A model generated the notes under the pieces. That model was not told where the DNA came from. It saw only the letters and a list, made by a program, of their open reading frames with translations, and made no database searches. A DNA stretch of 64,000 bases. Origin: an uncultured Methanosarcinales archaeon. GTDB taxonomy: Archaea > Nanobdellota > Nanobdellia > Woesearchaeales > GW2011-AR15. Where the stretch lies: NCBI GenBank assembly GCA_964512765.1, contig CAZEKF010000001.1, positions 66,366 through 130,365 of the forward strand, written 5' to 3'. Positions 28,560 to 60,632 of the stretch are shown piece by piece; positions within the stretch are counted from its first letter, which is position 1, and every line of letters starts with the position of its first letter. The position numbers were made by a program, and so were the translations under genes.

Positions 28560-28987
28560 TCAGTATTAATAACCTCAACATCATGTCTAGCTTCTAAAGC
28601 TTCGATTCTGCACGTGTCAAAGATCTCTGCATCTAAGTTTTCTCTTACTTTTTCTTTAGAATATCCTCGTTTTTCTAACCTTTTTTTTAATTCTTTTAAC
28701 TCGCATTTTGTGATGCAGCATTTATCAACATATTTTTTTGGCAAATAATGTGATAAATGAGAGTCAATAACTAAATTATCTTGTTTTTTTATTATACTTA
28801 TAAGAACTTTGTTTAGTTTTTCTACATCAATTAACTCTGTTTCCTTTTCTTTATCGTATCCTTCGGATAATTTATGCTCTTTTACCAACTGATTTACATC
28901 AACATATTTCAGTTTCTTTTCTTTAGCAAGTTTTTTAGCAAAAACAGTCTTACCTGTGGCTGGTGTTCCAGATACAATTACAATCAT
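28556..28987 (-). CDS. P-loop kinase, Fap7/AK6-type putative adenylate kinase
   Basis: MIVIVSGTPATGKT is the Walker A motif. The size and DSHLSH motif are consistent with archaeal AK6/Fap7. Confidence 0.55.
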   Translation of the reverse strand: MIVIVSGTPATGKTVFAKKLAKEKKLKYVDVNQLVKEHKLSEGYDKEKETELIDVEKLNKVLISIIKKQDNLVIDSHLSHYLPKKYVDKCCITKCELKELKKRLEKRGYSKEKVRENLDAEIFDTCRIEALEARHDVEVINTD

Positions 28988-40391: not shown

Positions 40392-41405
40392 TTATTGGTC
40401 TAAATATGATTCCAGTTTTTTTCTTTTGTAATCCATCAGTTTAATATGTTTATTAAATAATTTTAAGTTTGGTTTTGAAGTTATTCGGATAATATATTTA
40501 GAACATTTACCATATCTGTTCATATATGTGTTTGTTAAATAAGGACCTTGAACTTTAATACCCAACTTGTTTAGAAGTAGCTTGTCGATTTCCAGAATGC
40601 CTGAAGGAGCAGGAGTACCATTCTTTATTAAGGATGCTTGTTCTAATGTTATCTCCCTTTTTCCAACACATCCATCGTCATTGAAAGCTTTTGCAAGAAA
40701 CTCAGAAATTAATTCTTTGTCATCAATTTTTTCTAGGAAACTGAATGGTTGAAAATGGATTTTTATTTTGTATCCAGGAGTATAACCTATGGAGATCATT
40801 ATCTCACCTACTATGGTTGGCAAAGTTATGCGATAGATACCTTTTTTGTCTTTTTTAATTTCTCTTTTAAATTTCCCAAATAATATTTGAGAGTCACTAA
40901 GAAATTCCGAACATTCAGGTTTTGATTTATTTACATATCTAGGTTGTTTGTTGTCTTTTCCAATGCAACCGTCATGATAAAGATGACTTAAAAATCTCAT
41001 ACCTTCTTTTGTATTGAAACTTATGGGAAAAACAGGATAATATATTTTTTGTGAATGAGAACCACCACTTTTTATATAATATATGTTTTTTTCTAAATTC
41101 AATAATGTGAAAGTACCACATCCCGCATTTACCAAAAGATTCGATATCTTCTGAAGATTTGATAATGAAAAAGGGACTCTTGTGAATTGATCCCAAAGTT
41201 GAGTAAAACTAATATTAGAAATCCGAGACAAGTTTGTTATTGTCTCAAAGGTGTTAAGTGCACTTTTAAATATTATTTTTTTAAGTGGAGGTTTGAACTC
41301 AACATAAATGGATTCCGTATTGTTCAAATTTAAGGAGCTTTTCAAATCTCTTAAATGATATGTTCCCTTTTTTGTTGATCTTTTACTCTTTTTTCCAAAT
41401 TTCAT
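40392..41405 (-). mobile_element. Free-standing double-motif LAGLIDADG-type homing endonuclease gene (putative)
   Basis: Two LAGLIDADG-like motifs (LSHLYHDGCIGKD and LAKAFNDDGCVGKRE) about 100 aa apart. Basic C-terminal tail. Inserted between a Zn-ribbon gene and EF-1beta. Confidence 0.5.
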
Positions 41406-45091: not shown

Positions 45092-46738
45092 ATGACGAAA
45101 AAGAAAAGATTAATGGATGATGCAGATCTTGATCAGTTTGTTAGAGACTGTATTCTTATATGGTATAATCGAACTGATGCACAGCCAATAACCGAAGAAC
45201 AGTCAAAAAAAATTTACAGAACAATTGGTGATATGGTTAACGCACACGAATTAGTCGCAGAGGTTTTTGAAGCTACGCAAGACATAATTCCTTTAATTGT
45301 TTATGATGAAGTACGCGTTTTAAGAAAAGAAATTGATCAGTATGATTCTCTTCTTTATGTTTTACATGGTAATTTTGATTATAGAGATGCACATCTAAGA
45401 CACGGAGATTCTTTGTTGGCTGTTTTAGCACAACACGTAGACTTGGCTACACCATACGAAACATGGAGACAACAACAAAACTTTTCTAAAGTTGATAATG
45501 TCACTGAACAACCTCAACAAGCACAAGCATTTGAAGTTGAACCAGGAGAAGAACATCACCACGTAGTACAACAATCTGTCCGAGATGAAATTCCGGTAAA
45601 TGCATCAGCAAGAGTTGAGGATATGCGTCTTGACGGTCATGCTTTACAAATACCAGGGACAGGAGTAACAGTTGCCACTCAGCTTGACCAACATCAAATT
45701 ATTGTTTCAGGAACAGCACCTAATAATTTTGTTATTCATCTACCAGGAGATCTTGGTGATAAATTACAAGACGGGTTACTTATAGTTGATACAATCGATA
45801 GGTTTTCACCTGAAATACGTCGTTTTGATTTTTTTTCAAGAGCTGAGCGAATTGCAGCTGGGCATGAAAAAGGGATAGCTACAAACTTATATCCGTCAGG
45901 ACAAGGAGCTAGTGCAACAATTACTTTTCAACAACCAGCAAACTATTTGTTAGTGCCTTTAGATGGAGATGGTGCATTAACTTGTGAACGAGGGAGATTC
46001 AAAGGATATATTGGGACATATAATTTGCGAAGATTTGAAAGAAATTTTAATATTTCTAATTTTCTTTTGGCAAACTTTAATTTTATTGTCAGTAAGTTAT
46101 CTGATCAGCCATTATTATTTGGACCTGTTCAAAAAGTGAATGTTAATGGTCAAGGATACGCAATAATTCAAGCATCTAAGGGAACTCAGACAGTTACCAT
46201 GCCTCCCCATGATGAACAAGATTTAGAATCGCCTGTTATTGCATACAAAAATGTTTTTTTCAAAGATAAAGGGTTGCCTTATAAAATTGGCATGGAAGTA
46301 ATTACTGCAGGAGGGTTAGCATCATTAGCTCTTATTTTTGGTGATAAAGCACCAGAAATAGGTAAAATGATTGGAGGATTTGCTGCAGGGTATTATGCTA
46401 CATCTGCAACGGTTGGCAAACGTACTTTTAAAAACACTTTAGTTAGTATTGTTACTGGTGTTGCTTGTGCAGCAACTACACAAATTAATTACGAACCAGT
46501 ACAAGAAGTTGTTCAAAATATTGTTGAACCTGTTTATGCGGGATTAGACGGATTATTTCTTGGGAGAATTCTATATGGAACAATATTTAATCCTATTAGG
46601 ATTAAAAACTGGGGAGAAAGAATATTTAGAATGTTATACTTGAGCAAAACCAATAATGCATTGACACAACCAGTAGCCTATACTAAAGAGAAAGTTGGTC
46701 ATGTTATAGAAGGAAGAATTGGTAGAGCTAGGGAATAA
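45092..46738 (+). CDS. Hypothetical protein with a C-terminal glycine-zipper membrane region (548 aa)
   Basis: About 400-aa soluble N-terminal region, then GxxxG-rich helices (VITAGGLASLALIFG, IGGFAAGYYATSA). Composition shift relative to the core genome. Confidence 0.3.
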   Translation: MTKKKRLMDDADLDQFVRDCILIWYNRTDAQPITEEQSKKIYRTIGDMVNAHELVAEVFEATQDIIPLIVYDEVRVLRKEIDQYDSLLYVLHGNFDYRDAHLRHGDSLLAVLAQHVDLATPYETWRQQQNFSKVDNVTEQPQQAQAFEVEPGEEHHHVVQQSVRDEIPVNASARVEDMRLDGHALQIPGTGVTVATQLDQHQIIVSGTAPNNFVIHLPGDLGDKLQDGLLIVDTIDRFSPEIRRFDFFSRAERIAAGHEKGIATNLYPSGQGASATITFQQPANYLLVPLDGDGALTCERGRFKGYIGTYNLRRFERNFNISNFLLANFNFIVSKLSDQPLLFGPVQKVNVNGQGYAIIQASKGTQTVTMPPHDEQDLESPVIAYKNVFFKDKGLPYKIGMEVITAGGLASLALIFGDKAPEIGKMIGGFAAGYYATSATVGKRTFKNTLVSIVTGVACAATTQINYEPVQEVVQNIVEPVYAGLDGLFLGRILYGTIFNPIRIKNWGERIFRMLYLSKTNNALTQPVAYTKEKVGHVIEGRIGRARE

Positions 46739-48110
46739 CCTCTTCGTAATAATCTGTTATTTTGAATGAATCAATAATTGTTGTGTTGTTTCCACTCACT
46801 TGATGAGCATTACCTATCAACGCGTTTTCATGCACGTCTATAGTTACAAAGTGATAAATACCGCATTTTGCATATTTTTGTAAAAAATTTATGCTTTGCT
46901 CATGATGACGTATTCCCCAACTACAGTCTTTTAATGGACCTCCTCCTCCGCCTGTTACAATAGTATGAATGAAGGTATTTGGAAAGATAAAAGTTTGTTC
47001 AGCACCGTTTTCGGGTTTAGTTTTATGCCCATCGTCAGGAACAGCATACCTTTCATATGAATGTAAATGACCTGAAAACACCATTGTTACATCATATTCT
47101 CTGAATAAATCTTCATAAAGATTACTTACTTTGGTAGTTTTACTCTCACCCATAGTAGCTGTATAAAACGGCATGTGCATGTATACAATAATGTTTTCTA
47201 TACCCTCCATTGATCGTGCTTGTTGAAGATGATTTTTTACCCAACCAACAGGTGTATTTCTCCAATATTCGTTTCCTTGTTCAAATGAAATAAAATATGT
47301 GTTTTTGTATCTAAAAGCATAGTTTGTTCCGTACTGAAGATCGCTTGGCGAACCAGATTCATGTGTGTTTGAAGGAGGGAACAACTTAAAATTATCTCCA
47401 AGTCCAGGGTTGCTTAGAAGAGAACTAAGAAATGACCTATATTGAAGAATTCCGTCTTGTGCTTGGTCATGGTTTCCGCTTGTTGGGAAGAAAGGTATAC
47501 CGTTTAGTTTATTTGTGAAACACTGGTTAAATCTACTGTAAGCACCGCCTGACCATCCCCAGTCCATTAAATCACCAGTATGAATTACTAAATTTGGGTT
47601 AGTCTGTGCTAACAAAGAGGGTAAACTTGATCTTTCAGCACCGCCGCATGAGTTTGTTGCATACTGTGTATCTCCAACAACGCCAAATCTAAACAAAAAT
47701 TCACCGTCTAATGATTCTGCGACTAATTTGTCCACAGGATTTCCTACCCACAACTCTAGTTTTTTTGAAGCTTCTGGTGTAGGTGTTGTCATTTGCGTAG
47801 ATGTCAATAAAATTTCTTGCGTTGGTGTCATAACATCTGTCGTTGGTGTATATACTTGAGTAGGATTTAATAGAACTTCTAAAGTAGGTGTTGTTGTAAT
47901 ATCAGATGAAACCACAGTGCCTAATGTGAAATCTGTTGAAAAAGCAATTGGGCTTGGAGTGACATAAACTTGTGCTTGGTTCTGTGATACAGATGTTGAA
48001 GAAGTTACTGTGCCATAGACCCAGCCAACAGTTACAGCACCGCCTAACAGTACAAGAGATCTTACTAAACCATTTTTCTTTTTCCTACGCCTACGTCTTC
48101 TTCTTGTCAT
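46728..48110 (-). CDS. Arg-tail signal-anchored surface protein with a calcineurin-like metallophosphatase domain; C-terminal ...EEVIP tag
   Basis: MTRRRRRRRKKK plus TM. T/P-rich stalk. Metallophosphatase motifs GDTQY, GDLMD, GNHD, MHMP, GHLHSYER. Ends DYYEEVIP. Confidence 0.7.
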   Translation of the reverse strand: MTRRRRRRRKKKNGLVRSLVLLGGAVTVGWVYGTVTSSTSVSQNQAQVYVTPSPIAFSTDFTLGTVVSSDITTTPTLEVLLNPTQVYTPTTDVMTPTQEILLTSTQMTTPTPEASKKLELWVGNPVDKLVAESLDGEFLFRFGVVGDTQYATNSCGGAERSSLPSLLAQTNPNLVIHTGDLMDWGWSGGAYSRFNQCFTNKLNGIPFFPTSGNHDQAQDGILQYRSFLSSLLSNPGLGDNFKLFPPSNTHESGSPSDLQYGTNYAFRYKNTYFISFEQGNEYWRNTPVGWVKNHLQQARSMEGIENIIVYMHMPFYTATMGESKTTKVSNLYEDLFREYDVTMVFSGHLHSYERYAVPDDGHKTKPENGAEQTFIFPNTFIHTIVTGGGGGPLKDCSWGIRHHEQSINFLQKYAKCGIYHFVTIDVHENALIGNAHQVSGNNTTIIDSFKITDYYEEVIP

Positions 48111-48116
48111 TTTTAT

Positions 48117-49469
48117 TTAAGGTATAGCTTCATCAGGATCATACTCTTCCACATTTGAAGCAACATGAACATCAGATTGTAACCTTGCAACCCAGATTTC
48201 GCTGTTTGATTTTTTCAAAGAATAACTGTGCTGCTGGTCTATCTTACCATATAGTAACCATAGTTCTTGGTTCATTCTATATATTTGATTTGCAGAATAA
48301 TGTTGGAAATTACCTTCTCCATTAAGAACCCACTTACCTGTTCTGTTCCAATTAATACCGTCACTGCTATACGTCCATTCTAAATGAACATTACCTTCAG
48401 CATGAACACGATCAACGCCTTCTCTAATGTTACGTAATTCTGGTTCATAAATCCAAAGAACACCTAAATATCCATTCTGAACTTGTGTAACTGCCATACC
48501 ATAGAAATGCGTGTCTTTTCCTTCTTTATCAATCTCACTTTGGTTTGGCACAAGCACTAGCTGTGGTTCAGACCAATTAATAAAATCATCAGATACAACT
48601 CTAGCAACAGTTCTTATTCTTACACCTTCAATATTTTCTTGTCTTTTAACATATCCAACATATTTATTTAACCTGAAATCATAGAAAAAGTTAGCAACAT
48701 CGCTCCAATTTGTATATGGGCCACCTATTTGATTAAAATCAATACCATTTGTAGATTCATATGCCATAAATCCGTTGTCTCGTTTATATACCATTAATTT
48801 CATGGTCTTTGTACCATCATAAACAACAGACGTCATGTTAGAATTTTCAAATAAAATCCGTTCGTTACTCCACTCATTACCATTACCACTTTCTACAACT
48901 CTAATGCTTGACCCAGAACCCGATGCTTTATCCCAATGAGTGAAATAAAGAAAATAGTTGTCACGATTTTCTCCTTTTGGTAAAATTCCACCATACACAT
49001 ACTCGATACCTTCAAACCTGTTTCCTTCTGTAAAAAGTATAGAATTATCTATAACTCTAACACTGTTAATCCAAGAAGCCAAATCAAACTCAAGATTACA
49101 TAAATATTCAGGAGGGCATAAAGATGCTTCTATTGTATTTTCAAGTGTAGGTGTTAAGGTTACAATTGGTGTTGAAGTTAACAACACTTTTGGTGAAGGA
49201 GTAAGTATAACCGGTTGAGTAGGATCAGACACAATAGTACCATCTGCAAAAGGTTCAGAAAAAGTAGGAATTGTCTGGTTGTTGTCAGAATGTTCTTTTG
49301 GATTATAAGGTAAGATAGCAGCTATTTGGTCAAATATTGGTTCGTTAAAATCAATCTGGCTTATTACATAACCTGTGTATAAAGAAGCTCCTCCTATTAA
49401 AGCAACTGTTCCAATAGTTTTAAGGAAATTTCCTTTTCTTTTCCTTCTTCTACGTCTTCGTCTTGCCAT
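48117..49469 (-). CDS. Arg-tail signal-anchored surface protein with a beta-propeller glycoside-hydrolase-like domain; C-terminal ...DEAIP tag
   Basis: MARRRRRRRKRK plus TM. T/P stalk. W/Y/G-rich repeated blocks typical of GH32/43/130-type propellers (the fold assignment is tentative). Ends EEYDPDEAIP. Confidence 0.4.
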   Translation of the reverse strand: MARRRRRRRKRKGNFLKTIGTVALIGGASLYTGYVISQIDFNEPIFDQIAAILPYNPKEHSDNNQTIPTFSEPFADGTIVSDPTQPVILTPSPKVLLTSTPIVTLTPTLENTIEASLCPPEYLCNLEFDLASWINSVRVIDNSILFTEGNRFEGIEYVYGGILPKGENRDNYFLYFTHWDKASGSGSSIRVVESGNGNEWSNERILFENSNMTSVVYDGTKTMKLMVYKRDNGFMAYESTNGIDFNQIGGPYTNWSDVANFFYDFRLNKYVGYVKRQENIEGVRIRTVARVVSDDFINWSEPQLVLVPNQSEIDKEGKDTHFYGMAVTQVQNGYLGVLWIYEPELRNIREGVDRVHAEGNVHLEWTYSSDGINWNRTGKWVLNGEGNFQHYSANQIYRMNQELWLLYGKIDQQHSYSLKKSNSEIWVARLQSDVHVASNVEEYDPDEAIP

Positions 49470-49475
49470 TTTTAT

Positions 49476-51134
49476 TTAAGGTATTATTTCTTCATAAAAT
49501 TCATTTCCTTCGAAAATTCTATCTCGAACAACATAATATGCTGCACTACACTCAACAGGTGAGTCTGTAATGCCTTCACCAACACAACCATATTCAGGTG
49601 TTTTAAATGGAGATTTTACAGCACCTGTTATAGAAGTAGAGAGCATAAAATCCTTAACAGCATTTGCAACAGCTTCATAACACCTAAAACTGTCAAAAGG
49701 GAACCCTTCCACAGCTTGGCAACTCATTAAATTGTTTGTTAACCAAGCAAGTTGGTCAAGACTTGTGTCATAATTAAGTGGTTCCTGAAAATTTAATACA
49801 TTTATCATATATCTAACATGCCACATATGACCTAACTCATGTGCAAAAACTTTTGTGAATATTTCTTGAGACACTGTATCTCTGTTTTTCATTATAATTT
49901 CATTATAGGAAACAACACCAGAGTCTGTTGTATTTTGAAAGCTTGTAACACCAGTGTCTGAACACGTCACAATTAACGGATCATTAAATAATACATAAGG
50001 TCCAACTCTTGTAACGAGTTCTTCTGCCCAAACAGGAATTTCTTGTCTACAGTTGTTAAAAGATACTAAACCAAATTCATATGTAGGGGCTTGTGCAACA
50101 ACTACAGTCGGAGTAGGTACAAGAGGTGTGTTAGTCAAAGTAGGGTTGAGAACACCAGTTGGCGTAGCTATCGCAACTTGACCACTACCTTGGTCAGGTT
50201 GAGAAATATCTACTTCAACAAACACACCTTTGTAATCAGGATATAAACTGCTAAGGTTTTCTAAACTAGTAGATTGTACACCACCTGCTGCAGTTGAATG
50301 AATAACAGTAACACCGTTATTAGTTGGGATCGCTATTCCAACATGCGAATATTCTCTTATGCCACCTTTATCATGGTTAAGTGTCCATAGATACATTTTA
50401 CCAATTTCCATATGATTACCAATATCATCCCATTTATCAGGGTCATAACCTTGGAACTCAGTAAATCCGTCTATTGGTTTAAATATCTGAGAATTTGGAT
50501 CAATAATGTATGCAATGTTAAGTGTCTGGTCCCAACCATATGCTTGCCTTAAAACTTCGTCATCTGCAGGTCGGTCTGTTCTTTGTTGAAATGCGTCGTC
50601 AAGTTTGATATTAACTCTACTAATTGCTCTGGCAGCTTGTAACTGATACCCTGCACAGTTGAATCCAATAACATTATCAATTGTTGGTGCACCACCTGTC
50701 CAATAAACAAACGAGCCATTATCATCAATAAAACCAAAGTTCTTGTAAGGCACGCCAATGTACTGACTTGCGTCATTTAAAGCCATTTGTGCAATTTCGT
50801 CAACACTTTTACTCGTCTGTGTAAAAAATAACGTTGGAGTTGGAGTTAACATTAAAGCATCAGGCGTAGGAGTTAATGCTACTGGTTGAGTAGGTCCAGG
50901 GATAAGTGTACCATTCATGAAACTTTCAGGAAAAATAGGAATTGCTTGATTATCATCAGATTGTTCTTTTGGGTTGTAAGGTAAGATAGCAGCTATTTGG
51001 TCGAATATTGGCTTGTCAAAATCTATCTGACTGATTAGATAACCACTGTATAAAGCTCCACCTATTAGAACCAAGTTTACACCAGTCCTAAGACAACCGC
51101 CTCCTCTCCTTCTTCTACGTCTTCGTCTTGCCAT
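49476..51134 (-). CDS. Arg-tail signal-anchored surface protein with NlpC/P60-like cysteine peptidase and HEXXH zinc-metallopeptidase domains; C-terminal ...EEIIP tag
   Basis: MARRRRRRRRGGG plus TM. NCAGY (Cys) and HVGIAIP...IHSTAAGG (His) of NlpC/P60. AHELGHMWH zincin motif. Ends NEFYEEIIP. Confidence 0.6.
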   Translation of the reverse strand: MARRRRRRRRGGGCLRTGVNLVLIGGALYSGYLISQIDFDKPIFDQIAAILPYNPKEQSDDNQAIPIFPESFMNGTLIPGPTQPVALTPTPDALMLTPTPTLFFTQTSKSVDEIAQMALNDASQYIGVPYKNFGFIDDNGSFVYWTGGAPTIDNVIGFNCAGYQLQAARAISRVNIKLDDAFQQRTDRPADDEVLRQAYGWDQTLNIAYIIDPNSQIFKPIDGFTEFQGYDPDKWDDIGNHMEIGKMYLWTLNHDKGGIREYSHVGIAIPTNNGVTVIHSTAAGGVQSTSLENLSSLYPDYKGVFVEVDISQPDQGSGQVAIATPTGVLNPTLTNTPLVPTPTVVVAQAPTYEFGLVSFNNCRQEIPVWAEELVTRVGPYVLFNDPLIVTCSDTGVTSFQNTTDSGVVSYNEIIMKNRDTVSQEIFTKVFAHELGHMWHVRYMINVLNFQEPLNYDTSLDQLAWLTNNLMSCQAVEGFPFDSFRCYEAVANAVKDFMLSTSITGAVKSPFKTPEYGCVGEGITDSPVECSAAYYVVRDRIFEGNEFYEEIIP

Positions 51135-51140
51135 TTTTAT

Positions 51141-52694
51141 TTAAGGTATTAATTCATCTGGTCCGTCATAATGAACTGTTGCAAAATTTACAACTGACCG
51201 ACCACTCCAAGTATATTCGTACAGCCTACCATTAAAATAAATCTGTTGCGATCCTCCAGCGTCCATGTTAATTGCAGAATGTGCACCAATGTTGTCCATT
51301 ATTTCTGCAGCATTGCACAAAGTCATTGGTTGAGTTATCATAACAAATAAGGTATTATCATTCACGCCAATCACTGTTCTTCCTCTTGAACCCCATTTAG
51401 GAGAATGACAATCTTGTTTAATGTCAGGATAAAAATCACCGCCGTAGTTGCTTCTATTAAACAAAGTATTGTTACCAGAAACAGCGTATAATATACCGTC
51501 GAAGTTACTGTTAATGTGCCTAATTGTTACTCTACCATTTTCATAAACTACTAATGAAGGCTCTCTAGGGTTTCCAGCATGGACATGATTACGATGTACA
51601 TACGGACCTTTAGGAACAGATGAACCAGAGTCCCATTGATCAGCATTAACAGTAAAAATTACATTATGGCTGTTAGCATATCCTTGCGCAGTATTTAACC
51701 CACCAGGTGCAGAAGATCCAACATTAATGTAAGGACTACACAAATCAAATTTAAACAAAGTATAATTGCCATTATTTTTAATTATTATAGGCTCATCCCT
51801 TGGTTTACAGTTATTTGGTCCTTGTGATTCTTCTGTTGGTCTAGGAGTATGTGTCAATGTAGGGACAGGAGTTGGTGTACTAATTAGATGTTTAATATCT
51901 ATATTACCTAAATCAGGTGAATAACTTTTAACTGCATCTTTTAGATGTTGGTAAGGATAACTGTTATTTGCAAAGCGCAACATTTCTTTTTCAGCTAGAT
52001 CGTAACTGTAGTTTTCGAACTCCACCCTATATATACCAACAATCATACCTGCTCTATGCGCACCATGCTGGCAATGAACATATACCGGTTGCATAGCAGG
52101 ATCTTTAATAATTGTCATAATCTCTAGAATATTTTTGTTAAAATCATGATGTGTAGGAGATTCTGCATTCATTGGATATTTATCAATGTAAATCATGCCT
52201 CTTTGTTCAACTAATGATCGTTCATTAGGCATTCCTTGAGACAAATCTATAACTGTTTTAAATCCTTGAGCTTGTAAATAATCAAAAGCAGCAGCAGAGT
52301 CTGGTTGAGCACCTGCAGCTAACACACCAGGATCAATCCATCTTAAATGAGTTACTGGTGAACCTTCAACTAAAGGAGGAATTTCTGCTTTAACAACAAT
52401 GTCAAGCGTAGTAGTTGGTTGAGGTGTAGGTGTATGGGTTGGCATCAATGTGGGCAGAGGAGTGTGAGTTAATGTTGCTAAAGTTTCTGGTGTTATGTAT
52501 GGGTCTGTTGGTGCGTACAGTACTGTTGCAGTAGTATCTAAGATTTGCTGAGCAGACATGTTATTAACATGAGCAGATGCATGGTCCCTTGTTTTAAAAT
52601 AAACAAATGACGCCGCTGTACCAAGAATAAATAATCCAAGAGGTATAACACAACTATTTCTACGATTCTTTCTTCTACGTCTCCTACGTGCCAT
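51141..52694 (-). CDS. Arg-tail signal-anchored surface protein with a CX5R (PTP/DSP-type) phosphatase domain and a phosphodiester-glycosidase (NAGPA-like) domain; C-terminal ...DELIP tag
   Basis: MARRRRRRKNRRN plus TM. VHCQHGAHRAG is an HCxxGxxR P-loop. C-terminal AINMDAGGSQQ resembles the NAGPA/DUF2233 motif. Ends YDGPDELIP. Confidence 0.6.
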   Translation of the reverse strand: MARRRRRRKNRRNSCVIPLGLFILGTAASFVYFKTRDHASAHVNNMSAQQILDTTATVLYAPTDPYITPETLATLTHTPLPTLMPTHTPTPQPTTTLDIVVKAEIPPLVEGSPVTHLRWIDPGVLAAGAQPDSAAAFDYLQAQGFKTVIDLSQGMPNERSLVEQRGMIYIDKYPMNAESPTHHDFNKNILEIMTIIKDPAMQPVYVHCQHGAHRAGMIVGIYRVEFENYSYDLAEKEMLRFANNSYPYQHLKDAVKSYSPDLGNIDIKHLISTPTPVPTLTHTPRPTEESQGPNNCKPRDEPIIIKNNGNYTLFKFDLCSPYINVGSSAPGGLNTAQGYANSHNVIFTVNADQWDSGSSVPKGPYVHRNHVHAGNPREPSLVVYENGRVTIRHINSNFDGILYAVSGNNTLFNRSNYGGDFYPDIKQDCHSPKWGSRGRTVIGVNDNTLFVMITQPMTLCNAAEIMDNIGAHSAINMDAGGSQQIYFNGRLYEYTWSGRSVVNFATVHYDGPDELIP

Positions 52695-52740
52695 GATGTT
52701 CTCATCGACCAGTAGTAAATAGTTATATTTAAAGATAGTG
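52650..52740 (-). repeat. Copy 1 of an approximately 90-bp duplicated segment covering the leaderless promoter (TATA-like TTTAAATATAACT) and the first approximately 14 codons of the Arg-tail gene
   Basis: A 45-mer CATGATGTTCTCATCGACCAGTAGTAAATAGTTATATTTAAAGAT at 52692..52736 is identical to 54313..54357. The flanks are near-identical. Confidence 0.7.
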
Positions 52741-52785
52741 GGTTTTCAATATGATTTTACTGTATAATTGAAGAAGAATTAGGTG

Positions 52786-54315
52786 CTATGGAATAGGTTC
52801 ATCATAATTATATTCATAAGCGGTTCTAAATGAGCTTGCAATATCTATACTGTTTCCAGAAATTAAAACTAATTTTCCACTATTTGACCCATTCATGGTT
52901 GGTATTGTTAAATTAACATTACCTTCTTCATTTGCTTGAATAACATCACCAGTAAAAACATTTGTTAATATTTCATAAGCTGGTAGTCCATTGAGCGTAT
53001 AATTTCTGGATTCTTGTGTTAAATTGACTAGGTAATACATTTGGGAGTCATTAGGCCCTTGCCTGACCATGTATGCAATACCATTTTGGTTTCCATATTC
53101 TGGATTTGATCCAGTTAACCAAGGCATTAACGCATGAAGTTCATGACCAATCTCACTAATAGTATTCCATAAAGATTCGTATAAACATGGTTTATTATAT
53201 TCACATTCTGGCCAATCCCATAAGGCAATACCATTAGCACCGCCAACAATTGCTTCGTCAATTCGTTGCCTAAGCATACCTCTTGATTGATTATAATTAA
53301 AATGTGCTGGTAAAACAACAAATGTAGAGTTTGAAATACCAGATTCTTTTTTACTTGATAACTGTCTTACTGAATTAAATGTTTTTCCAGTTCCTGAATA
53401 GTTATGATAAAAGTCAGCACCCCATATATCACCTAAGAGAGTATTAAATAATTGATCAGAAGAATAACCAAAATTAGGTTGATCCATTCTGTGATGTAAT
53501 ATTAATGTGTCGTGAACTGCATTGTTATGAATTTTTTTGTGGAGCCTTGTAACTTTTTCAGATATTAAGTTCCAATTTTTAATTAAATTAGGTTCATCTT
53601 TTCCATAGAACCATAACATTGAAGGATGATTATCTACAAAATTAATGAATTCAATTAGTTCTTCAGGTTTTTCGTCATATGTGTCAAATCGAGGAATCAT
53701 CATCATGCCAAATTCTCTGGCATGTTCAAAAATTTTGGGACCATATGGCTGCATAACAATTGTGTTAATACATGCATTAGACACTCTTTGCCACACATTC
53801 ATATTATGATTTATTTCAGCATCAGGCCCAAAGTCAGGATTATCAAATGCACCAGGAGGCCTAGGTAAATAATATATTCCAAATGGAAAAAAACCTGTTC
53901 CTTGTTGAGGGAGACCGTCACCAGTAATAATTATTGAACCTTGATTTTCATAATTTATTTGATTAGCACCATTTGCATACCAGGAAGGAACACATATAGT
54001 ATTATGTTGAACTAAATCTTGGAGATTTTGGACTTGAAGGGTGGGCGTTAGGGTAGGTAATGGTGTTGGTGTTGAAGTAGGTAATGGAGTATGAGTTAAA
54101 GTTGGTAATGTTTCAGAAGTCACAATTGTTTGAGTAGGTACAAAAAAAGCTTGTTGTGCAGGAGTCGCAACACTATTTTGTTGAACAGATGCTGCAATAT
54201 TTGGTATTACTTCTTCAAACATAAAATATGACACAGTAGTACCTAAAATAAATAATCCAAGAGGCACAACACAACTATTTCTACGTTTACTTCTTCTACG
54301 TCTCCTACGTGCCAT
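52786..54315 (-). CDS. Arg-tail signal-anchored surface protein with a TIM-barrel glycoside-hydrolase-like domain (tentative); C-terminal ...DEPIP tag
   Basis: MARRRRRRSKRRN plus TM. T/P stalk. WFYGKDEPN resembles the GH clan-A NEP acid/base strand. Ends YNYDEPIP. Confidence 0.35.
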   Translation of the reverse strand: MARRRRRRSKRRNSCVVPLGLFILGTTVSYFMFEEVIPNIAASVQQNSVATPAQQAFFVPTQTIVTSETLPTLTHTPLPTSTPTPLPTLTPTLQVQNLQDLVQHNTICVPSWYANGANQINYENQGSIIITGDGLPQQGTGFFPFGIYYLPRPPGAFDNPDFGPDAEINHNMNVWQRVSNACINTIVMQPYGPKIFEHAREFGMMMIPRFDTYDEKPEELIEFINFVDNHPSMLWFYGKDEPNLIKNWNLISEKVTRLHKKIHNNAVHDTLILHHRMDQPNFGYSSDQLFNTLLGDIWGADFYHNYSGTGKTFNSVRQLSSKKESGISNSTFVVLPAHFNYNQSRGMLRQRIDEAIVGGANGIALWDWPECEYNKPCLYESLWNTISEIGHELHALMPWLTGSNPEYGNQNGIAYMVRQGPNDSQMYYLVNLTQESRNYTLNGLPAYEILTNVFTGDVIQANEEGNVNLTIPTMNGSNSGKLVLISGNSIDIASSFRTAYEYNYDEPIP

Positions 54316-54362
54316 GATGTTCTCATCGACCAGTAGTAAATAGTTATATTTAAAGATGGTGT
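54272..54362 (-). repeat. Copy 2 of the approximately 90-bp duplicated promoter / 5'-CDS segment
   Basis: See copy 1. About 4 mismatches over about 90 bp. Confidence 0.7.
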
Positions 54363-54441
54363 TTTTTATGAAAATTAACTCTTAATTAGTATCAAATAAT
54401 TTTAAATATAACGTGTCATTACTTTTTAGTAAGAATTTATC

Positions 54442-55818
54442 ATGGTAAGATTGAACATTAAAAAAAAGACTAGAAAGCGCTCAAAAAAAAGAAGCTCAAG
54501 AAAGACTTTAAGAAGACGACCTAGTTCAGGTAATTCTCTTCAAAATAAATTGTTAAATTTTATACCTTCAGAGGCACCTGCTCAACGTCCAGGACTTGAA
54601 TTTAAAGATATTGTGGGAGATCTTTTTCGAAGGGGACCATGGTACTTATTTACACCATTTGCTTTGGAATCCGGAGATGCAACTGTTGATATTAATCCTT
54701 CTAGTCCAAGTCACGGGCAAATCATTGGTGATGTTAGTCTTAATCCAGTGAATGATTATGCAATAAATCATGTTACTTTTGAAATTGGGAAATCTATGTT
54801 AAGAGGCATTGCAGCTTCAAAAGAAAATTCAATAGTAGATACAATAATGCATGTAAGTGTTTTAGGATTATCCGGTTATCAATTTTATAATGGTTTTAGG
54901 AGATTAGGACATTTTCTATGGACAAATCCTATTACAGGTATACCCATTAGATCCTTAATAGGAAATTATGCACCAGATTTAGCAATGGCAATTGACATGG
55001 AATACTTGGACTTAAATTCACAACCAGAACAGTACACACCAATGGGTTCATTATTTGTAGGTATTAGCAACATCACTAGAGGATTTGAAGATGGAATTCA
55101 AGCACTGGGACAATTATATTTTGATGTTCTAAGAATGATGGGAAAGGTTGCGGAGTCAGAACCTAAAAGATCTCTTAAAGATATTCTAAAAGATTTAATT
55201 CCAAATATGCCTAGAGAAGCACCTGCTCAACGTCCAGGATTAGAATTTAAAGATATTTTTGCAGACTTATTCAGAAGAGGACCATGGTACTTACTTACAC
55301 CGTTTGCATTAGAGTCAGGAGATGCAACTGTTGATATTAACCCTTCCAGTCCAAGCCATGGACAAATCATTGGAGATTTAAGCCTTAATCCAATAAATGA
55401 TTATGCAGTTAGCCATGTCTCATTTGAAATTGGAAAATATGTATTAAGGGGCATTGCAGCAGCTGAGAAACGTCCTAAAGTAGATTTGTTAATGCACGGA
55501 CTTGTTGGTGCATTATCTGGTTGGCAAATTGCATATGGTTTAAAAAGATTTGGACATTTTCTATGGACAAACCCATTTACAGGCATACCTCTTAGATCTT
55601 TTATAGGTAGTAATGCACCAGATTTAGCGATGGCAATTGACATGGAATATTTAGATTTAAGTTTACAACCTGAACAGTATACGCCTATTAGTTCATATTT
55701 TGTAGGAATTAGTAATATCACCAGAGGAATTGAAGATGGAATTCAAGCAGTAGGGCAATTATATTATGATACTCTTAGAATAATGGGACGAGTTGCAGAA
55801 CCTGATGATATGTATTAA
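54442..55818 (+). CDS. Basic-tail protein made of two tandem approximately 200-aa repeats of an unknown domain
   Basis: N-terminus KKKTRKRSKKRSSRKTLRRRP with no TM. Residues 44-258 and 259-458 are about 75-80% identical (EAPAQRPGLEFKDI...GDATVDINPSSPSHGQIIGD...). Confidence 0.4.
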   Translation: MVRLNIKKKTRKRSKKRSSRKTLRRRPSSGNSLQNKLLNFIPSEAPAQRPGLEFKDIVGDLFRRGPWYLFTPFALESGDATVDINPSSPSHGQIIGDVSLNPVNDYAINHVTFEIGKSMLRGIAASKENSIVDTIMHVSVLGLSGYQFYNGFRRLGHFLWTNPITGIPIRSLIGNYAPDLAMAIDMEYLDLNSQPEQYTPMGSLFVGISNITRGFEDGIQALGQLYFDVLRMMGKVAESEPKRSLKDILKDLIPNMPREAPAQRPGLEFKDIFADLFRRGPWYLLTPFALESGDATVDINPSSPSHGQIIGDLSLNPINDYAVSHVSFEIGKYVLRGIAAAEKRPKVDLLMHGLVGALSGWQIAYGLKRFGHFLWTNPFTGIPLRSFIGSNAPDLAMAIDMEYLDLSLQPEQYTPISSYFVGISNITRGIEDGIQAVGQLYYDTLRIMGRVAEPDDMY

Positions 55819-55829: not shown

Positions 55830-57314
55830 TTATCCAGTAATTTGATTTTGTTTGTTATGAGTTTGATTATGATCATATAACTCTTTTGTACTTAGACTAG
55901 TTGTTGCTGCAACTTGTTTAATTTGCATATGGTCATTGTTTGCCCATGAAGAAATTCTATTTACAGCTGCATGTATCTTTTCCATATCTCCTTTTGCGTA
56001 CATTCTAACACAAGCCAAACGGTAGTTAGGGGGAAGTTTTCTTAATTTTTTTTTTTTAATTTGTTTTACAGGATCTCTAAACAAACCAGTTTTCGGCATC
56101 CAGTCACCGTAAGCATATTCAGGTATTACTTCAAATACCTCTTCAGGATCAAATTCATCAATTCCTTTGAACATTCTTTCAGTCCATGTTGCTTCATCAG
56201 GCGGCATCCATGGTGCTATGGAACAGTTTCGAAACCTAGCAATTGAGTTGGCTCTAGGCTGTGGAGTGTACGGATATCCATACAATGGATAGTAAATTTG
56301 TACTTCTAATTCAAGACCACCAGACTTTTCTTTTTCTATTTCACTAACGTACCCAACTACTAAGTCACCGTCTATTTCAACAGGATTTAACTGGGAAGAA
56401 ACACCAGGAATGGGATCCCATCTTGGGTTTAGAGCTCTTCCCAAGAATAAATGATCAGCATATCTATCTCTGTATCCTTCCATTTGTGAAAGATGTCTTG
56501 GTAAAGCAAAAAGACCACCTAGATCATAAACTCTTTTTGAAAATTCAACTTCTAATTCCATCTGCCCTGTATTTGTATCATGGTCAATATCAGCAAAAAC
56601 CAAAGTACCCAAACTTCTATCAAATATTTTAGGCAAAGCATTTAAAAATTGAACTCTAGCCATTTGTTCTGGATCAAGTTGTAATATTTTAATTGCATTC
56701 AAGATGTATTTAGTAACATAGGTCATGGGACCTTGCGAAAGAATGTTGACGTTTGATATGTATGGGCCGCTAGCAAGTGCATTAATAAGACGCTTACCAA
56801 AAGCATCTATAGTAATTTCAGTCTTTACATCTCGATCTTCCACAGGATATTGTCCAATTCTGTATCTGTTTTTTGATGCTTGAATTTCTTCGTAGGCAAA
56901 ATGATGTTTGAGATGGTGAACTGAAAAATCTGTAAACAGTGTTGCAAGCATATCTGGACTTCCTGCCATTTTAAAATCTAACTCTAACTTTGCATACGAT
57001 CTGTTTGGATAAAGTTCTAACCTTGTGTCACTACCTATGTATTCTTCTTGTTTAGGAACACGTTGAACTATACTTGCAAGCCCTTTTCTAATTTTCCTAT
57101 GTTTTGTTTTGTCTAAACTAAAAACTGGTTGCTCAGATTGCTGTGGCGGAGGAGTGTCCCATACCATGATTTGAGGTTCTGTTTGACCTAAATCTGTAGT
57201 TATTTCTCCTCCTTGGGTAGTTGTTATTCTAGAATCGTTGGATTTTGGACTAGTCATATCGCATGAGATTATTAAGTTAATATTTAAATATTTGCTTTTT
57301 CTAACTACTTTCAA
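55830..57314 (-). CDS. Hypothetical soluble protein (494 aa)
   Basis: Long ORF with no TM and no recognised motifs. Island-type composition. Confidence 0.3.
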   Translation of the reverse strand: MKVVRKSKYLNINLIISCDMTSPKSNDSRITTTQGGEITTDLGQTEPQIMVWDTPPPQQSEQPVFSLDKTKHRKIRKGLASIVQRVPKQEEYIGSDTRLELYPNRSYAKLELDFKMAGSPDMLATLFTDFSVHHLKHHFAYEEIQASKNRYRIGQYPVEDRDVKTEITIDAFGKRLINALASGPYISNVNILSQGPMTYVTKYILNAIKILQLDPEQMARVQFLNALPKIFDRSLGTLVFADIDHDTNTGQMELEVEFSKRVYDLGGLFALPRHLSQMEGYRDRYADHLFLGRALNPRWDPIPGVSSQLNPVEIDGDLVVGYVSEIEKEKSGGLELEVQIYYPLYGYPYTPQPRANSIARFRNCSIAPWMPPDEATWTERMFKGIDEFDPEEVFEVIPEYAYGDWMPKTGLFRDPVKQIKKKKLRKLPPNYRLACVRMYAKGDMEKIHAAVNRISSWANNDHMQIKQVAATTSLSTKELYDHNQTHNKQNQITG

Positions 57315-57369
57315 GTGATAAAATTAGTATTATTTATATATAACTTGTAATTACTCATCGATAATAAAA

Positions 57370-58398
57370 ATGCCTAGACGTAGAAGACGAAAGAAAGGAA
57401 TAGTGTCACCTCTGTTAATAGTTCCTGTTGTACTTTCTGCGACTAGTTGTTATTTAGTTTATTCAGTTCTTAAGTCTGATGATGGTGCTCTGGCACAAAA
57501 CAATGTTGTAATGATAACCACAACCTCAGAATACACTGCTACTCCTGCATACACATTAACTGCTGTTCCACCTGAATTAACACCAGAGGCAACAGTTGTT
57601 TTACAAGATTCTCATGGAGAAGGTTTCCCTGCAATACCTGCTGAGTTATTTAGTGGGATTCCTTCTAACCCAGGGGGAGGAGCTTTAGACGGTAGTTTGT
57701 TGCCAACATCTACACAAATGCCAAGAATGGGCTCTGAAGATCAACAGCCAAGAGAAGAACCGAATAATCCACAACCTGATCTTGGGAACTGTGCTATTAC
57801 TTACCCGTTTCAAGGAACACTAGGAGTTGATTTTTCAAGAACCTCGGGACCCCATACTTATGGAGCAGCAATAAATGGGGTTTCTCAGAATGCAGAAGAT
57901 TATGGAACTGCTGCAAATGTTGATCCAGTAATAGCTGTAATCTCAGGCAAAGTACTTTACTCATCACATGCACAATTATTGATTGATGGTCCTTGTTACT
58001 GGGCTTATTATTATCATGTTGACCAAGACCTGAGATACGGTCAACAAGTTGAAATTGGTCAAGCTATTGGTAGAGAAGCTTGTAATGTTGATAGTACTTC
58101 AGCAGGTTGTAGTGGTCCTCACGTTCACCTTAATATTTACGTTAAAGCTCAAGGACGAAGTGTGCCATTATCAGCTCTTAATGTCACATCTTGGCCAAAA
58201 GGTAATTCATATAATCCCTTCCAGGAGATTAGCGTAGCTTCTGCTATAGATTTTTTAGTTGCAAAAGAAACTTTGCAGGGCTATGAAGCAACACCACATG
58301 CTTTTGTATCTAAACAATTAGCAAGCGGTATTTATGTGCCTTCTTCAAAGAAAAAAAATGTTTTAGATGAAATAGTATGGGACCAGCCAATTTTGTAA
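57370..58398 (+). CDS. Arg-tail signal-anchored M23-family (LytM/lysostaphin-like) metallopeptidase
   Basis: MPRRRRRKKG plus TM. M23 motifs YYHVDQD (HxxxD) and GPHVHLNIY (HxH). Ends DQPIL. Confidence 0.65.
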   Translation: MPRRRRRKKGIVSPLLIVPVVLSATSCYLVYSVLKSDDGALAQNNVVMITTTSEYTATPAYTLTAVPPELTPEATVVLQDSHGEGFPAIPAELFSGIPSNPGGGALDGSLLPTSTQMPRMGSEDQQPREEPNNPQPDLGNCAITYPFQGTLGVDFSRTSGPHTYGAAINGVSQNAEDYGTAANVDPVIAVISGKVLYSSHAQLLIDGPCYWAYYYHVDQDLRYGQQVEIGQAIGREACNVDSTSAGCSGPHVHLNIYVKAQGRSVPLSALNVTSWPKGNSYNPFQEISVASAIDFLVAKETLQGYEATPHAFVSKQLASGIYVPSSKKKNVLDEIVWDQPIL

Positions 58399-60632
58399 AT
58401 GGAATAGCACTTGTAACAACAGCTGCTAGGTTGTTGGTACCTGCTGCAGGAGAAGTAATAGCATCTGATACTGTAGAAAGCCCGCAACAATCTGTTTCTA
58501 TTTGCCAGGCAATTAATGATCCAGGCAGTATTGGTGGTGATCTAGGCAATTTAGTTAATGCACTGGCATCTGCAGCTAGCCAAGCGCCAAGACATGGTAT
58601 TGGAATGAATGGTGGTGTGGAAAAAATAACAGCAGACGTGTTTGGCTGCGGTGAAATGGAGTTAACTGGCAAGTTTTTATCAACACTACCTGCGGCAGTT
58701 GCATTGTACTATGAACAATCTGACATTTCTTCAATGATTTCCAATGCAAGAAGTTACCCAGGTGGTGACCCTAGCAATGAAATAAGATCTGCTGTAGTTG
58801 TTGCGTTGTCAATGACTGAAAAAGGTAGAAAGATATTATCTGATCATGGAATTAATGGAAACATTAACGATGGAGCACAATTATTAATGGCAGTAAACAG
58901 GTTTGATGGTAAAGGACACGACATTATACCTTTACAAGACGCGTATTATTTAAGAACAGCTCTTCAAAATGGTAGAATTGTTGATGCTACTGCTTATAAC
59001 GAGAAAGCAATGTGGTATTATCAACAGGTAATGTCCAGTCCAATTTTAAGAGCTACCATGACAAGGATATCGATTAGAGAATGGACTCACAGACATGGAG
59101 CACAAAGTTACTGGGTGCAAATGGGTGGACGAATTAATTATTATCCAGACCATCCATCAAAAATATTTAACAGTGGAAAATGGTCAAGTTCTGCCTATGG
59201 AAAATACCAGTGGTTGACAAAGACATGGAATGATTTTTCTAAAAAGTTTCTTAATGCTCCAGGAATGGATCCTGTTTCACAAGAGTTAGGCGCTCCTGTT
59301 TTAATGAGAGAAAAAAGAAGTTGTTTTGATTTAGTTAGAGCAGGAGATAGAAATAGTCTAACAAGTGCTTTATCAGAATTAGGCTGTGAATGGGCAGGTG
59401 TACCGAATAGCTTAGCCAGAAGTGGGTGTATTTCTGGACAAAATCCAGCTGAGTCTGGTCAAGCATTTATAGACGCTGTATTTAGTACACATCTTCAAGA
59501 AGCAGAAAATATGCAAGACCAAGCATTTAAAACATTGTCAAGTGCAGGCCATCTTGGACCTTATTTGATAGTGCCTGCATTTAATTTTCCTGCTGGGTCA
59601 GTTGTTAAACTGCATACAAGTTCAGGTATAGTTGAAGTTCAAGGTCCAATTGCTATTCCAACATCTAATTTAGGCGACTGGGCGCAAAACAATAACTGGT
59701 CAGATACACGCGCGGGAGAATATACACCAGGTAATGGTTCTATTCCAATGAGTTATGTTAAGTGGATTAATGAACCAGACATGAGGCCAGTTGTTAATGT
59801 TCCTCAAGACATTGTTGCTGCACCAGAAGATTATGTGTTAAGTGGTGGTGCATCTTCTGCACCAGGCAGTGTTCCTGCAATGCAACTTGACGACACAGCT
59901 GAGACACTTGGTGTAATAGATCAAACTAGAGTGTCATCATATGGTAAGTTTGATGTGGAGTACGATGATCTTATGACTGCGTTTATAAAATCAGATACAG
60001 AAGTTACGCTTAACATTAGATCAATGAATATGGAAACAATAATTCACCAAGATAATATGTTTAAAATTGCACTAGGTAAAAACCTTGAAGTTGAAGGAGA
60101 CAGTTTGTCCTTAATAGGTTGGGGTAATCAGTTTAACCTTGAAGTTAATCAAAATTCTGCTGTTTTACAGTTACCTCAAAGTGAGGGTTATTTTGGTATA
60201 GGACTTATTTATGAAACAAATGGTATTTCTTATATCTTAAATACCAAAACAATTTTTGAAAGTCCTGCGTTAAGAGGAGAGTTTACATTTTTCGAATTAG
60301 ATTTACCTACAATAACTGATGATAACATGCAAAACCTTGACATTGCAGCTGTTGAACTTTCATGGAAAATGTATCAAGAAACTTTTGGTATTGTTTATAA
60401 TCCAGAAGAAATTGTAGAAAGAAAAGCTGAATGGGAAAGATATTCAAGAGATACTAATCATCCAGCTAATTTCTTTTATGTAGAAGCTGTTGGTATGCTT
60501 GCAAACACACCTATTTTTGGATATAATGATTCAGGTGAAATAATTGCTCTTGAACATGTTACACAGAACATGTTATTGCCTGTTCAAACATATGAATCTA
60601 ATATTGATTATTATCAAGAAGTTATACCTTGA
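58377..60632 (+). CDS. Large hypothetical secreted/surface protein (751 aa) with a C-terminal ...QEVIP tag
   Basis: Overlaps the M23 gene by 22 nt. No Arg tail. Ends DYYQEVIP like the minus-strand family. Domains not recognised; a muralytic partner role is speculative. Confidence 0.35.
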   Translation: MGPANFVNGIALVTTAARLLVPAAGEVIASDTVESPQQSVSICQAINDPGSIGGDLGNLVNALASAASQAPRHGIGMNGGVEKITADVFGCGEMELTGKFLSTLPAAVALYYEQSDISSMISNARSYPGGDPSNEIRSAVVVALSMTEKGRKILSDHGINGNINDGAQLLMAVNRFDGKGHDIIPLQDAYYLRTALQNGRIVDATAYNEKAMWYYQQVMSSPILRATMTRISIREWTHRHGAQSYWVQMGGRINYYPDHPSKIFNSGKWSSSAYGKYQWLTKTWNDFSKKFLNAPGMDPVSQELGAPVLMREKRSCFDLVRAGDRNSLTSALSELGCEWAGVPNSLARSGCISGQNPAESGQAFIDAVFSTHLQEAENMQDQAFKTLSSAGHLGPYLIVPAFNFPAGSVVKLHTSSGIVEVQGPIAIPTSNLGDWAQNNNWSDTRAGEYTPGNGSIPMSYVKWINEPDMRPVVNVPQDIVAAPEDYVLSGGASSAPGSVPAMQLDDTAETLGVIDQTRVSSYGKFDVEYDDLMTAFIKSDTEVTLNIRSMNMETIIHQDNMFKIALGKNLEVEGDSLSLIGWGNQFNLEVNQNSAVLQLPQSEGYFGIGLIYETNGISYILNTKTIFESPALRGEFTFFELDLPTITDDNMQNLDIAAVELSWKMYQETFGIVYNPEEIVERKAEWERYSRDTNHPANFFYVEAVGMLANTPIFGYNDSGEIIALEHVTQNMLLPVQTYESNIDYYQEVIP

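Follow-up and report, generated by a model that had tools for sequence, protein, structure and literature searches.

A near-identical promoter-and-anchor head shared by two neighbouring enzyme genes of a Woesearchaeota-like archaeon, probably through recent gene conversion

Introduction

How do two neighbouring genes with different catalytic domains come to share, almost base for base, their promoter, translation start and first codons? The question is raised by genes A and B, which lie on the minus strand of a 64,000-nt stretch of an archaeal contig (CAZEKF010000001.1; hereafter the window, to which all coordinates refer, with other genes named by their coordinates; Table 1). Each begins with one of two direct copies of a head of ~150 nt, which would consist of a TATA core promoter, a short leader, the ATG, a Met-Ala-Arg6 tail and a hydrophobic export or anchor helix of ~19 residues. 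The answer that we consider probable is that two paralogous heads were recently homogenised by gene conversion, leaving A and B with the same promoter, start context and targeting, and with copy A also serving the genes downstream.

Extent of the direct repeat and assembly support

A repeat search of the window identified a direct repeat of 154 nt at 87% identity, its copies spaced 1621 nt apart, within which the longest exact run measures 67 nt. On the coding (minus) strand this 67-mer consists of ATCTTTAAATATAACTATTTACTACTGGTCGATGAGAACATC, the 42 nt upstream of the ATG, followed directly by ATGGCACGTAGGAGACGTAGAAGAA, the first 25 nt of the coding sequence. An initial sequence-only reading had described an identical 45-mer (52692-52736 and 54313-54357) with near-identical flanks, spanning promoter, ATG, Arg-tail codons and anchor. 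Exact alignment recovers the 45-mer, inside a longer repeat since the exact run reaches 67 nt, together with the flanks, and the coordinates and TATA match bear out what it spans. Allowing up to three mismatches, the 67-mer occurs at two sites in the whole window and at none in 100 shuffles, and a clean run of this length within 154 nt holding 20 differences is improbable by permutation (P = 9e-5). The limits of the similarity can be read directly from the alignment: its 5′ border falls ~52 nt before the ATG, immediately 5′ of the TATA box, and its 3′ border ~100 nt inside the coding sequence, where the hydrophobic helix ends.

A chimeric join or a collapsed repeat in the assembly could in principle produce such an arrangement, and some short contigs do break within the 67-nt repeat (ends at 54328 and 52682). 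The same B-A order and both copies are nevertheless observed in independent JGI, ENA and Logan assemblies at an identity of at least 99.88% (most 99.94-100%), on contigs that reach 167-262 kb. Because these assemblies agree, the arrangement is not an assembly artefact, an explanation to which we attach almost no weight. Structural polymorphism through the direct repeats was also ruled out, no B-deleted or rearranged variant being present among ~21 contigs.

Origin of the identity between the two heads

Over their N-terminal ~100 residues A and B are homologous, though in a mosaic pattern. Identity is 76% in residues 1-33, which comprise Met-Ala-Arg6 and the hydrophobic helix; residues 34-67 can hardly be aligned; and in residues 68-100 a segment of the Thr/Pro stalk (ETLxTLTHTPLPT) is conserved again. 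Synonymous sites follow a pattern of their own along this mosaic. Of the 24 degenerate residues that are identical within residues 1-33, 22 have the same codon in both genes, against an expectation of 10.5 from the codon usage of the surrounding gene island (described below); the corresponding counts are none of six in residues 34-67 and 8 of 21 in the stalk (22/24 versus 8/27 downstream; Fisher P = 9e-6). All eight Arg codons of the tail match between A and B (CGT AGG AGA CGT AGA AGA..CGT AGA), and the Arg tails of the remaining family members are spelled with different codons. Because the downstream stalk is conserved only at the protein level, the two heads were already paralogous; the stalk would thus be an old duplication held at the protein level, and the first ~150 nt, 42 non-coding bases included, would be young.

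A high-identity block with sharp borders, lying inside older divergence and extending over synonymous and non-coding sites alike, is what is found here, and it fits the pattern left when tandem paralogues exchange a short tract by gene conversion. The sequence-only reading had proposed a recent duplication or gene conversion; the data support copying that was recent, and by the codon test conversion between paralogues that were already old is preferred to one new duplication. In the process that we envisage, non-reciprocal recombination between tandem neighbours would have homogenised the first ~150 nt of the older paralogous heads, and both genes would thereby have been given the same transcription start, translation-start context and N-in/C-out membrane targeting. 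Head similarity peaks between neighbours elsewhere as well (A-B 0.87/0.98, 49476-48117 0.76, other pairs ~0.6). Since adjacent heads are the most alike, and since 49476 and 48117 share a 45-nt exact junction repeat of their own, homogenisation between neighbouring heads appears to be general in the array.

The same tract could have arisen in a one-off segmental duplication, or promoter capture, in which the B head (~-52 to +100) replaced a promoter-less 6-nt junction in front of A without ongoing exchange. Such a history would suit the 91-nt spacer that A alone has within the array, the other three junctions being of the 6-nt type, and the exact start of the repeat at the upstream edge of the core promoter. 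What makes it unlikely in our view is that A/B homology does not end with the identical block but reaches into the stalk, whose synonymous sites are saturated; the N-terminal regions were therefore paralogous long before the copying event. By mechanism a capture would in any case still be conversion-type copying, and would differ from homogenisation of paralogous heads in history only.

Promoter architecture and translation start

The TATA box of both copies, TTTAAATA, is of the canonical archaeal type and agrees at every base with the octamer that precedes at least nine other starts in the window; we take it as the TATA consensus of the genome. The 12-mer TTTAAATATAAC, with at most one mismatch, occurs at 14 sites against 3.15 expected, several of them intergenic. 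In A and B the first T of the octamer stands at -39, and the end of a TATA-like 13-mer lies 26 nt upstream of the ATG. This spacing, which like the match itself is observed directly, falls between two others in the window. Five genes (15481-15837, 28556-28987, 55830-57257, 60614-62620 and 62730) carry the perfect octamer 31-33 nt before the ATG, which would be the spacing expected when transcription starts at or beside the ATG. Two others, AglB (1472, GGGGGT) and the gene starting at 37494, carry it 51 nt before a start codon (ATG or TTG) with a Shine-Dalgarno motif (GGAGG/GGGGGT). The distance is 37 nt for the M23-peptidase gene 57370 and 41 nt for gene 54442.

Because the A/B TATA box lies at 39 nt rather than at the 31-33 nt of the leaderless class, a leader of ~6-9 nt without a Shine-Dalgarno motif is predicted, if the TATA-to-start distance is constant; the step from T to G 9 nt before the ATG would be a plausible initiator. 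Judged by the 31-33 nt spacing of the leaderless class, transcription would begin ~8-9 nt ahead of the ATG, ~30 nt below the TATA box. An out-of-frame ATG 14 nt upstream of the A/B start would precede the predicted transcription start. No GGAG, GAGG, AGGT or GGTG 4-mer occurs in the 20 nt before the ATGs of A and B, and Shine-Dalgarno-type 4-mers are present before the CDC48 gene and the gene at 37494. The window has no Rfam match and no RNA element was found at the head. The transcripts had been called leaderless in the sequence-only reading. The missing Shine-Dalgarno motif agrees with that description, which comes close, but the predicted leader exceeds the 5′ untranslated region of 0-5 nt by which leaderless transcripts are defined in Haloferax (Babski et al., as cited in PMC7531240), and by this ≤5 nt criterion A and B are probably not strictly leaderless. 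A sigma-70 promoter and terminator scan is not applicable to archaea and was uninformative.

Could purifying selection acting directly on the DNA or RNA, for example through an operator near the start and a constrained translation start, have maintained the identity in place of recent copying? The octamer CTCATCGA occurs at only three sites in 64 kb (52701-52708, 54322-54329 and 57354-57361), 7-16 nt before the ATGs of A, B and 57370, a number reached in 2/100 shuffles, and AGACGTAG is common to the Arg-tail coding of all six heads; both would suit such selection. Yet 67 consecutive bases are rarely frozen, here with the TATA-to-start spacer and all third codon positions included. The third head, before 57370, has the same presumed role and is only 67-69% identical, and the 5′ RNA of the heads shows no significant structure (z = +0.67 and -0.30). 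We consider selection in place of copying quite improbable. The octamer CTCATCGA has opposite orientations in A/B and in 57370, around a TCGA core, and may be an operator or initiator element, or a chance occurrence.

Gene B and the divergent gene 54442 have identical TTTAAATATAAC boxes in inverted orientation (54343-54354, minus, and 54401-54412, plus), 46 nt apart. Across the window two start types recur, one with the TATA box 31-33 nt before the ATG and no Shine-Dalgarno motif (e.g. 15481-15837, 28556-28987 and 62730), the other in leadered or operon-internal genes with motifs of the GGAGG/GGTGAT type (e.g. 1472, 37494 and 42717-44996). These types help start-codon annotation in the lineage, and the TATA distances would offer a promoter ruler for an uncultured lineage: 31-33 nt for leaderless genes, 39-41 nt for a short leader and 51 nt with a Shine-Dalgarno motif.

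Proposed operon structure and gene junctions

Behind A, three further family genes (49476, 48117 and 46728) are joined head to tail by the junction ATACCTTAAATAAAAATG, that is, ATA CCT TAA ATAAAA ATG (Ile-Pro-stop, 6 nt, Met), the same at all three array junctions. At these junctions there is no TATA box at usable distance inside the upstream genes and no Shine-Dalgarno motif. Because the inner junctions lack a TATA box, copy A is the only promoter placed to serve A, 49476, 48117 and 46728; it probably drives these as a four-gene operon, and would be the sole promoter for the three promoter-less genes behind A.

Termination-reinitiation over the conserved 6-nt junctions would be the simplest account of how the inner genes are translated. 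A spacing of -8 to +10 nt has been taken as predictive of termination-reinitiation in Haloferax volcanii and Escherichia coli, with reinitiation nearly abolished past ~20 nt (PMC10666635), and the array spacing of +6 nt falls within that range. The junctions might act as signals for reinitiation or as seams at which enzyme cassettes recombine. In one sample a TTA-to-TAA nonsense single-nucleotide polymorphism (window ~48170-48190) removes the last 21 residues of 48117, including the C-terminal tag described below.

A different operon structure would follow if copy A were an inactive relic and A, with the three genes behind it, were read through from the B promoter as one five-gene operon. Since no terminator-like signal (oligo-T tract or hairpin on the coding strand) separates the B stop from A, read-through from B may add to the transcription of A, and it is compatible with an active copy A. 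That copy A is a mere relic we find very unlikely, given that it is intact to the base, TATA box included, and that translation of A across a 91-nt spacer lacking a Shine-Dalgarno motif would be inefficient at a distance so far beyond the ~20 nt at which reinitiation nearly ceases (PMC10666635).

Several points weigh against the proposal that paralogous heads were homogenised and that copy A serves an operon. Promoter use, start site and operon structure are all read from the sequence, as are promoter activity, protein topology and the direction of conversion. No diverged orthologous locus was found in the searched collections, where every gene-bearing contig is 99.88-100% identical, and protein, genome, metagenome and viral searches returned no relatives. 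Nucleotide-level selection on a 67-nt regulatory and translation-start element would likewise give identical synonymous sites. No purine-rich B recognition element (BRE) precedes the TATA boxes (CACTATC/CACCATC in the two copies), and other promoters in the window likewise show no clear BRE consensus. Operon-internal genes elsewhere in the window carry Shine-Dalgarno motifs, so the array junctions without one are atypical for this genome. Finally, the head may encode a cleavable signal peptide instead of an anchor, for instance with cleavage near ASA at residues 39-41 of A.

Table 1. Features of the head repeat, its two genes and the adjoining array (window coordinates)
Feature	Coordinates	Strand	Basis and remarks
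Exact 67-nt repeat, gene A copy	52670..52736	-	Repeat comparison
Exact 67-nt repeat, gene B copy	54291..54357	-	Repeat comparison
Extended head module, copy A: predicted promoter, short leader, Met-Ala-Arg6 tail, hydrophobic helix (aa 1-33)	52593..52746	-	154 nt, 87% vs copy B
Extended head module, copy B	54214..54367	-	Repeat comparison
Gene A, 517 aa: Arg tail, anchor helix, Thr/Pro stalk, DSP-type phosphatase, Thr/Pro linker, NAGPA phosphodiester glycosidase, ...DELIP end	51141..52694	-	Open reading frame, Pfam
Gene B, 509 aa: same head, Thr/Pro stalk, orphan (beta/alpha)8 glycosidase-like domain with beta-sandwich, ...DEPIP end	52786..54315	-	Open reading frame, homologues, model
TATA box TTTAAATA, copy A	52726..52733	-	Motif match; first T 39 nt before A of ATG (52694)
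TATA box TTTAAATA, copy B	54347..54354	-	Motif match; first T 39 nt before A of ATG (54315)
B-A spacer, 91 nt, holding promoter copy A	52695..52785	-	Spacer sequence; only long spacer of the five-gene array; coding strand without oligo-T or hairpin terminator
Three downstream family genes (49476-51134, 48117-49469, 46728-48110)	46728..51134	-	Open reading frames, junction comparison; each joined by ATACCTTAAATAAAAATG (stop, 6 nt, start)
Junction repeat J1, 45 nt: Ile-Pro-stop, ATAAAA, ATG-Ala-Arg7	51107..51151	-	Exact copy of J2
Junction repeat J2	49442..49486	-	Exact copy of J1
Third junction	48093..48131	-	ATACCTTAAATAAAAATG
Diverged third head before M23-peptidase family gene 57370-58398: TTTATATATAACT...CTCATCGA...ATG-Pro-Arg5	57325..57400	+	67-69% vs A/B over 45 nt upstream; TATA 37 nt before ATG
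TTTAAATATAAC box of divergent gene 54442-55818	54401..54412	+	Inverted pair with copy B TATA; shared 126-nt bidirectional promoter region

Enzyme bodies of genes A and B

Beyond the shared head, A and B carry unrelated catalytic bodies, as A has Pfam domains and B is modelled as a (beta/alpha)8 barrel with a beta-sandwich; the sequence-only reading of two different catalytic domains is thereby borne out. Domain content in A is a dual-specificity phosphatase (DSP-PTPase) and NAGPA, one match being to the polymorphic-toxin DSP-PTPase family PF22785, and a query with its catalytic part returned only itself and two weak protein tyrosine phosphatase matches. Gene B has no match in Pfam or NCBIfam and none in the PDB by sequence, where searches with 49476 and 48117 also returned nothing, and a word-index protein query with B returned only B itself and A. 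An exhaustive HMMER search of 1.84 billion representative proteins with its catalytic part (52786-54033) recovered eight remote relatives at 28-36% identity, which share the motifs FFPxGIYYLPGP, WYGLDEP and GAxGIxWWDWP. All eight appear to have N-terminal hydrophobic or twin-arginine translocation (Tat)-type export signals, and none has either the N- or the C-terminal tag of the family. By these searches the catalytic part of B represents a near-orphan enzyme family.

An AlphaFold model of B built from a 7-sequence alignment gives the barrel and beta-sandwich (pLDDT 72.6, pTM 0.80); a single-sequence model was discarded (pLDDT 33). Because its structural matches in the PDB are only generic (beta/alpha)8 glycosidases of glycoside hydrolase families GH13/27/30/5 (TM ~0.45-0.5), no such family can be assigned. 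Three tandem 24-nt units at 54041-54112 encode the Thr/Pro-rich stalk of B, and similar stalks follow the anchor in every family member. In one sample a 52-nt segment inside gene B (window 53511-53564) is replaced by 10 nt.

N-terminal anchor and C-terminal tag of the family

The head is not the only feature that joins otherwise different proteins in this region. Eight island proteins (46728, 48117, 49476, A, B, 57370, 58377 and 62730, the last running past the window end and read complete on an overlapping contig at 8086-9891, minus) end in aromatic-x-[DEQ]-[EQ]-x-Ile-[Pro/Leu]-COOH, for example YYEEVIP, FYEEIIP and NFDEVIP. At the N-terminus, seven of the eight combine a tail rich in Arg and Lys (net charge +6 to +11) with one hydrophobic helix (Kyte-Doolittle (KD) score 1.4-2.0). 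In A and B a net charge of +9 is followed at residues 15-33 by a segment of KD 1.9-2.0, the sole such segment, and then by a Thr/Pro/Ser-rich stretch, a profile from which a type II signal anchor or Sec export signal is predicted. The sequence-only reading had presented the head as a feature of two genes, which holds for the near-identical copies; the picture is wider, with the other three array genes promoter-less, a diverged third head at 57325-57400 and the C-terminal tag shared by the family.

The C-terminal tag is spelled with varying codons wherever it is not part of a junction (ATT CCC TAG, ATT CCA TAG, ATA CCT TGA), so it is on the protein that selection for the tag acts. In the AlphaFold model of B the final 12 residues are disordered. 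The tag was not found in housekeeping open reading frames of the window, in 1.3 Mb of related genomes or in the remote homologues of B. For the tag pair, no matching family model was found in Pfam or NCBIfam, and no paper describing it was found.

Established signals were considered and rejected. A Tat signal is excluded for A and B by the lack of a PF10518 match and by RRNSCV, which departs from the S/T-R-R-x-F-L-K motif; the same model detects Tat signals in two of the remote homologues of B. An archaeosortase signal (PGF-CTERM and kin) is excluded since the proteins end at ...[DE][EQ]xIP with no C-terminal hydrophobic segment and no NCBIfam or Pfam match, and a lipobox reading of the family proteins was rejected by Pfam and NCBIfam scans and by the hydrophobicity profile. 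Two further searches say little: the N-terminal module of 49476 as a protein query gave no match and was uninformative, its own parent protein being unreturned as well, and a degenerate junction pattern ([DEQ-type codon]-x-Ile-Pro-stop, 6 nt, Met-x-Arg5) gave only GC-rich chance matches in viral and metagenome contigs, a weak negative as the source contig itself was unreturned.

The tagged enzymes include phosphatase/NAGPA, TIM-barrel glycosidase-like, metallophosphoesterase, M23-peptidase and lysozyme-like proteins. Tentatively, and with more doubt than conviction, we suggest that the duplicated head is half of a lineage-specific two-tag system carried by at least eight otherwise unrelated enzymes. 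The C-terminal peptide might then act as a short signal of a new kind, for sorting or docking, recognised by an untagged island protein (45092, 54442, 55830 or 60614), which would assemble or deliver a cell-surface arsenal against a host or prey cell, and the heads and Ile-Pro-stop-ATAAAA-ATG-Ala-Arg junctions might serve as recombination seams for new enzyme bodies.

Comparison with known systems

By analogy, the closest counterpart would be a family of the Mycoplasma vpma/vsp type, in which the 5′ untranslated region and signal-peptide coding region are highly conserved in clustered members and the coding bodies beyond are unrelated (PMC2268961). As in those families and the vlp type, one expression-and-export head serves many bodies and is kept alike by recombination between neighbours. 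The vpma/vsp proteins, however, are bacterial lipoproteins for phase and antigenic variation, with a site-specific recombinase moving a single promoter, whereas the locus described here is archaeal and has enzyme bodies, direct repeats, a promoter in both copies and no inverted sites. A phase-variable locus was rejected in its own right: no recombinase domain occurs among the island proteins, the repeats are direct, and the ~21 contigs include no rearranged variant.

The start regions resemble the leaderless and short-leader promoters of Sulfolobus and Haloferax (PMC7531240) in having TTTAAATA at a fixed distance from the ATG, no Shine-Dalgarno motif and an unstructured 5′ end, and in coexisting with Shine-Dalgarno-led genes in the same genome. 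They differ from leaderless promoters in the A/B spacing of 39 nt instead of 31-33 nt and in the absence of a recognisable BRE, and the start site here is a predicted one. With the concerted evolution of tandem paralogues (e.g. rRNA operons, PMC8022953) the heads share a near-identical tract bounded by older divergence, in repeats 1.6 kb apart; unlike in rRNA operons, the tract is very short (~150 nt) and takes in only the regulatory and targeting part, the genes being unrelated in all else. Diverse enzyme bodies with common trafficking or docking tags are also known from polymorphic toxin and effector cassettes and from dockerin-tagged cellulosomal enzymes, but no immunity genes, known secretion-system genes, dockerin or cohesin domains occur here, and the tags consist of a poly-Arg anchor and of a C-terminal peptide, six or seven residues long, that matches nothing in Pfam or NCBIfam.

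Copying of heads is thus a known, ordinary kind of gene-family evolution, of which this locus is a small clean case in a DPANN archaeon: one unit of ~150 nt, carrying information for transcription, translation start and membrane targeting, would have been copied between neighbours independently of the enzyme body. The two-tag enzyme family is of moderate interest, and the locus merits attention more for its enzyme island than for this mechanism. DPANN archaea depend on other cells, and little is known about how they display or deliver hydrolytic enzymes; the island, with its eight tagged enzymes and a C-terminal peptide not described before, offers a candidate for such a system that can be tested.

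Genomic setting of the island

The window is archaeal, encoding SecY, AglB/STT3, aIF5B, Trm1 and CDC48 at a G+C content of ~30%. We treat the source as a Woesearchaeota-like DPANN archaeon because CDC48 is closest to metagenome-assembled genomes of Woesearchaeota and Nanoarchaeota (best matches up to 76%). The repeat sits in an island of ~22 kb that extends from CDC48 (42717-44996) to housekeeping genes just past the window end. Island genes have a third-position G+C (GC3) of 0.198, against 0.241 for host genes, and the overall G+C of the island is somewhat higher; given these GC3 values, the higher G+C comes from amino-acid composition and not from foreign codon usage. The CDC48 neighbourhoods of 80 related Woesearchaeota and Nanoarchaeota genomes contain no island gene and no tagged protein, and on this comparison the eight-enzyme island would be lineage-specific. 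M23-peptidase and lysozyme-like proteins also occur in the island, and both classes of enzyme have been reported from Nanoarchaeota and Woesearchaeota (PMC12352652). A provirus or mobile element was rejected as its source, PHROGs giving lysin-type matches only, with no viral hallmark and no match in phage records or IMG/VR.

Two further genes of the window may be recorded. The untagged protein of 54442-55818 is very basic at its N-terminus (net charge +15 in the first 56 residues) and contains an internal tandem duplication (54561-54860 versus 55206-55505, 79% nucleotide identity); Pfam, PHROGs, phage records and IMG/VR yielded no homologue. Between housekeeping genes lies a free-standing open reading frame (40392-41405) with a LAGLIDADG-like domain (Pfam E = 9e-6).

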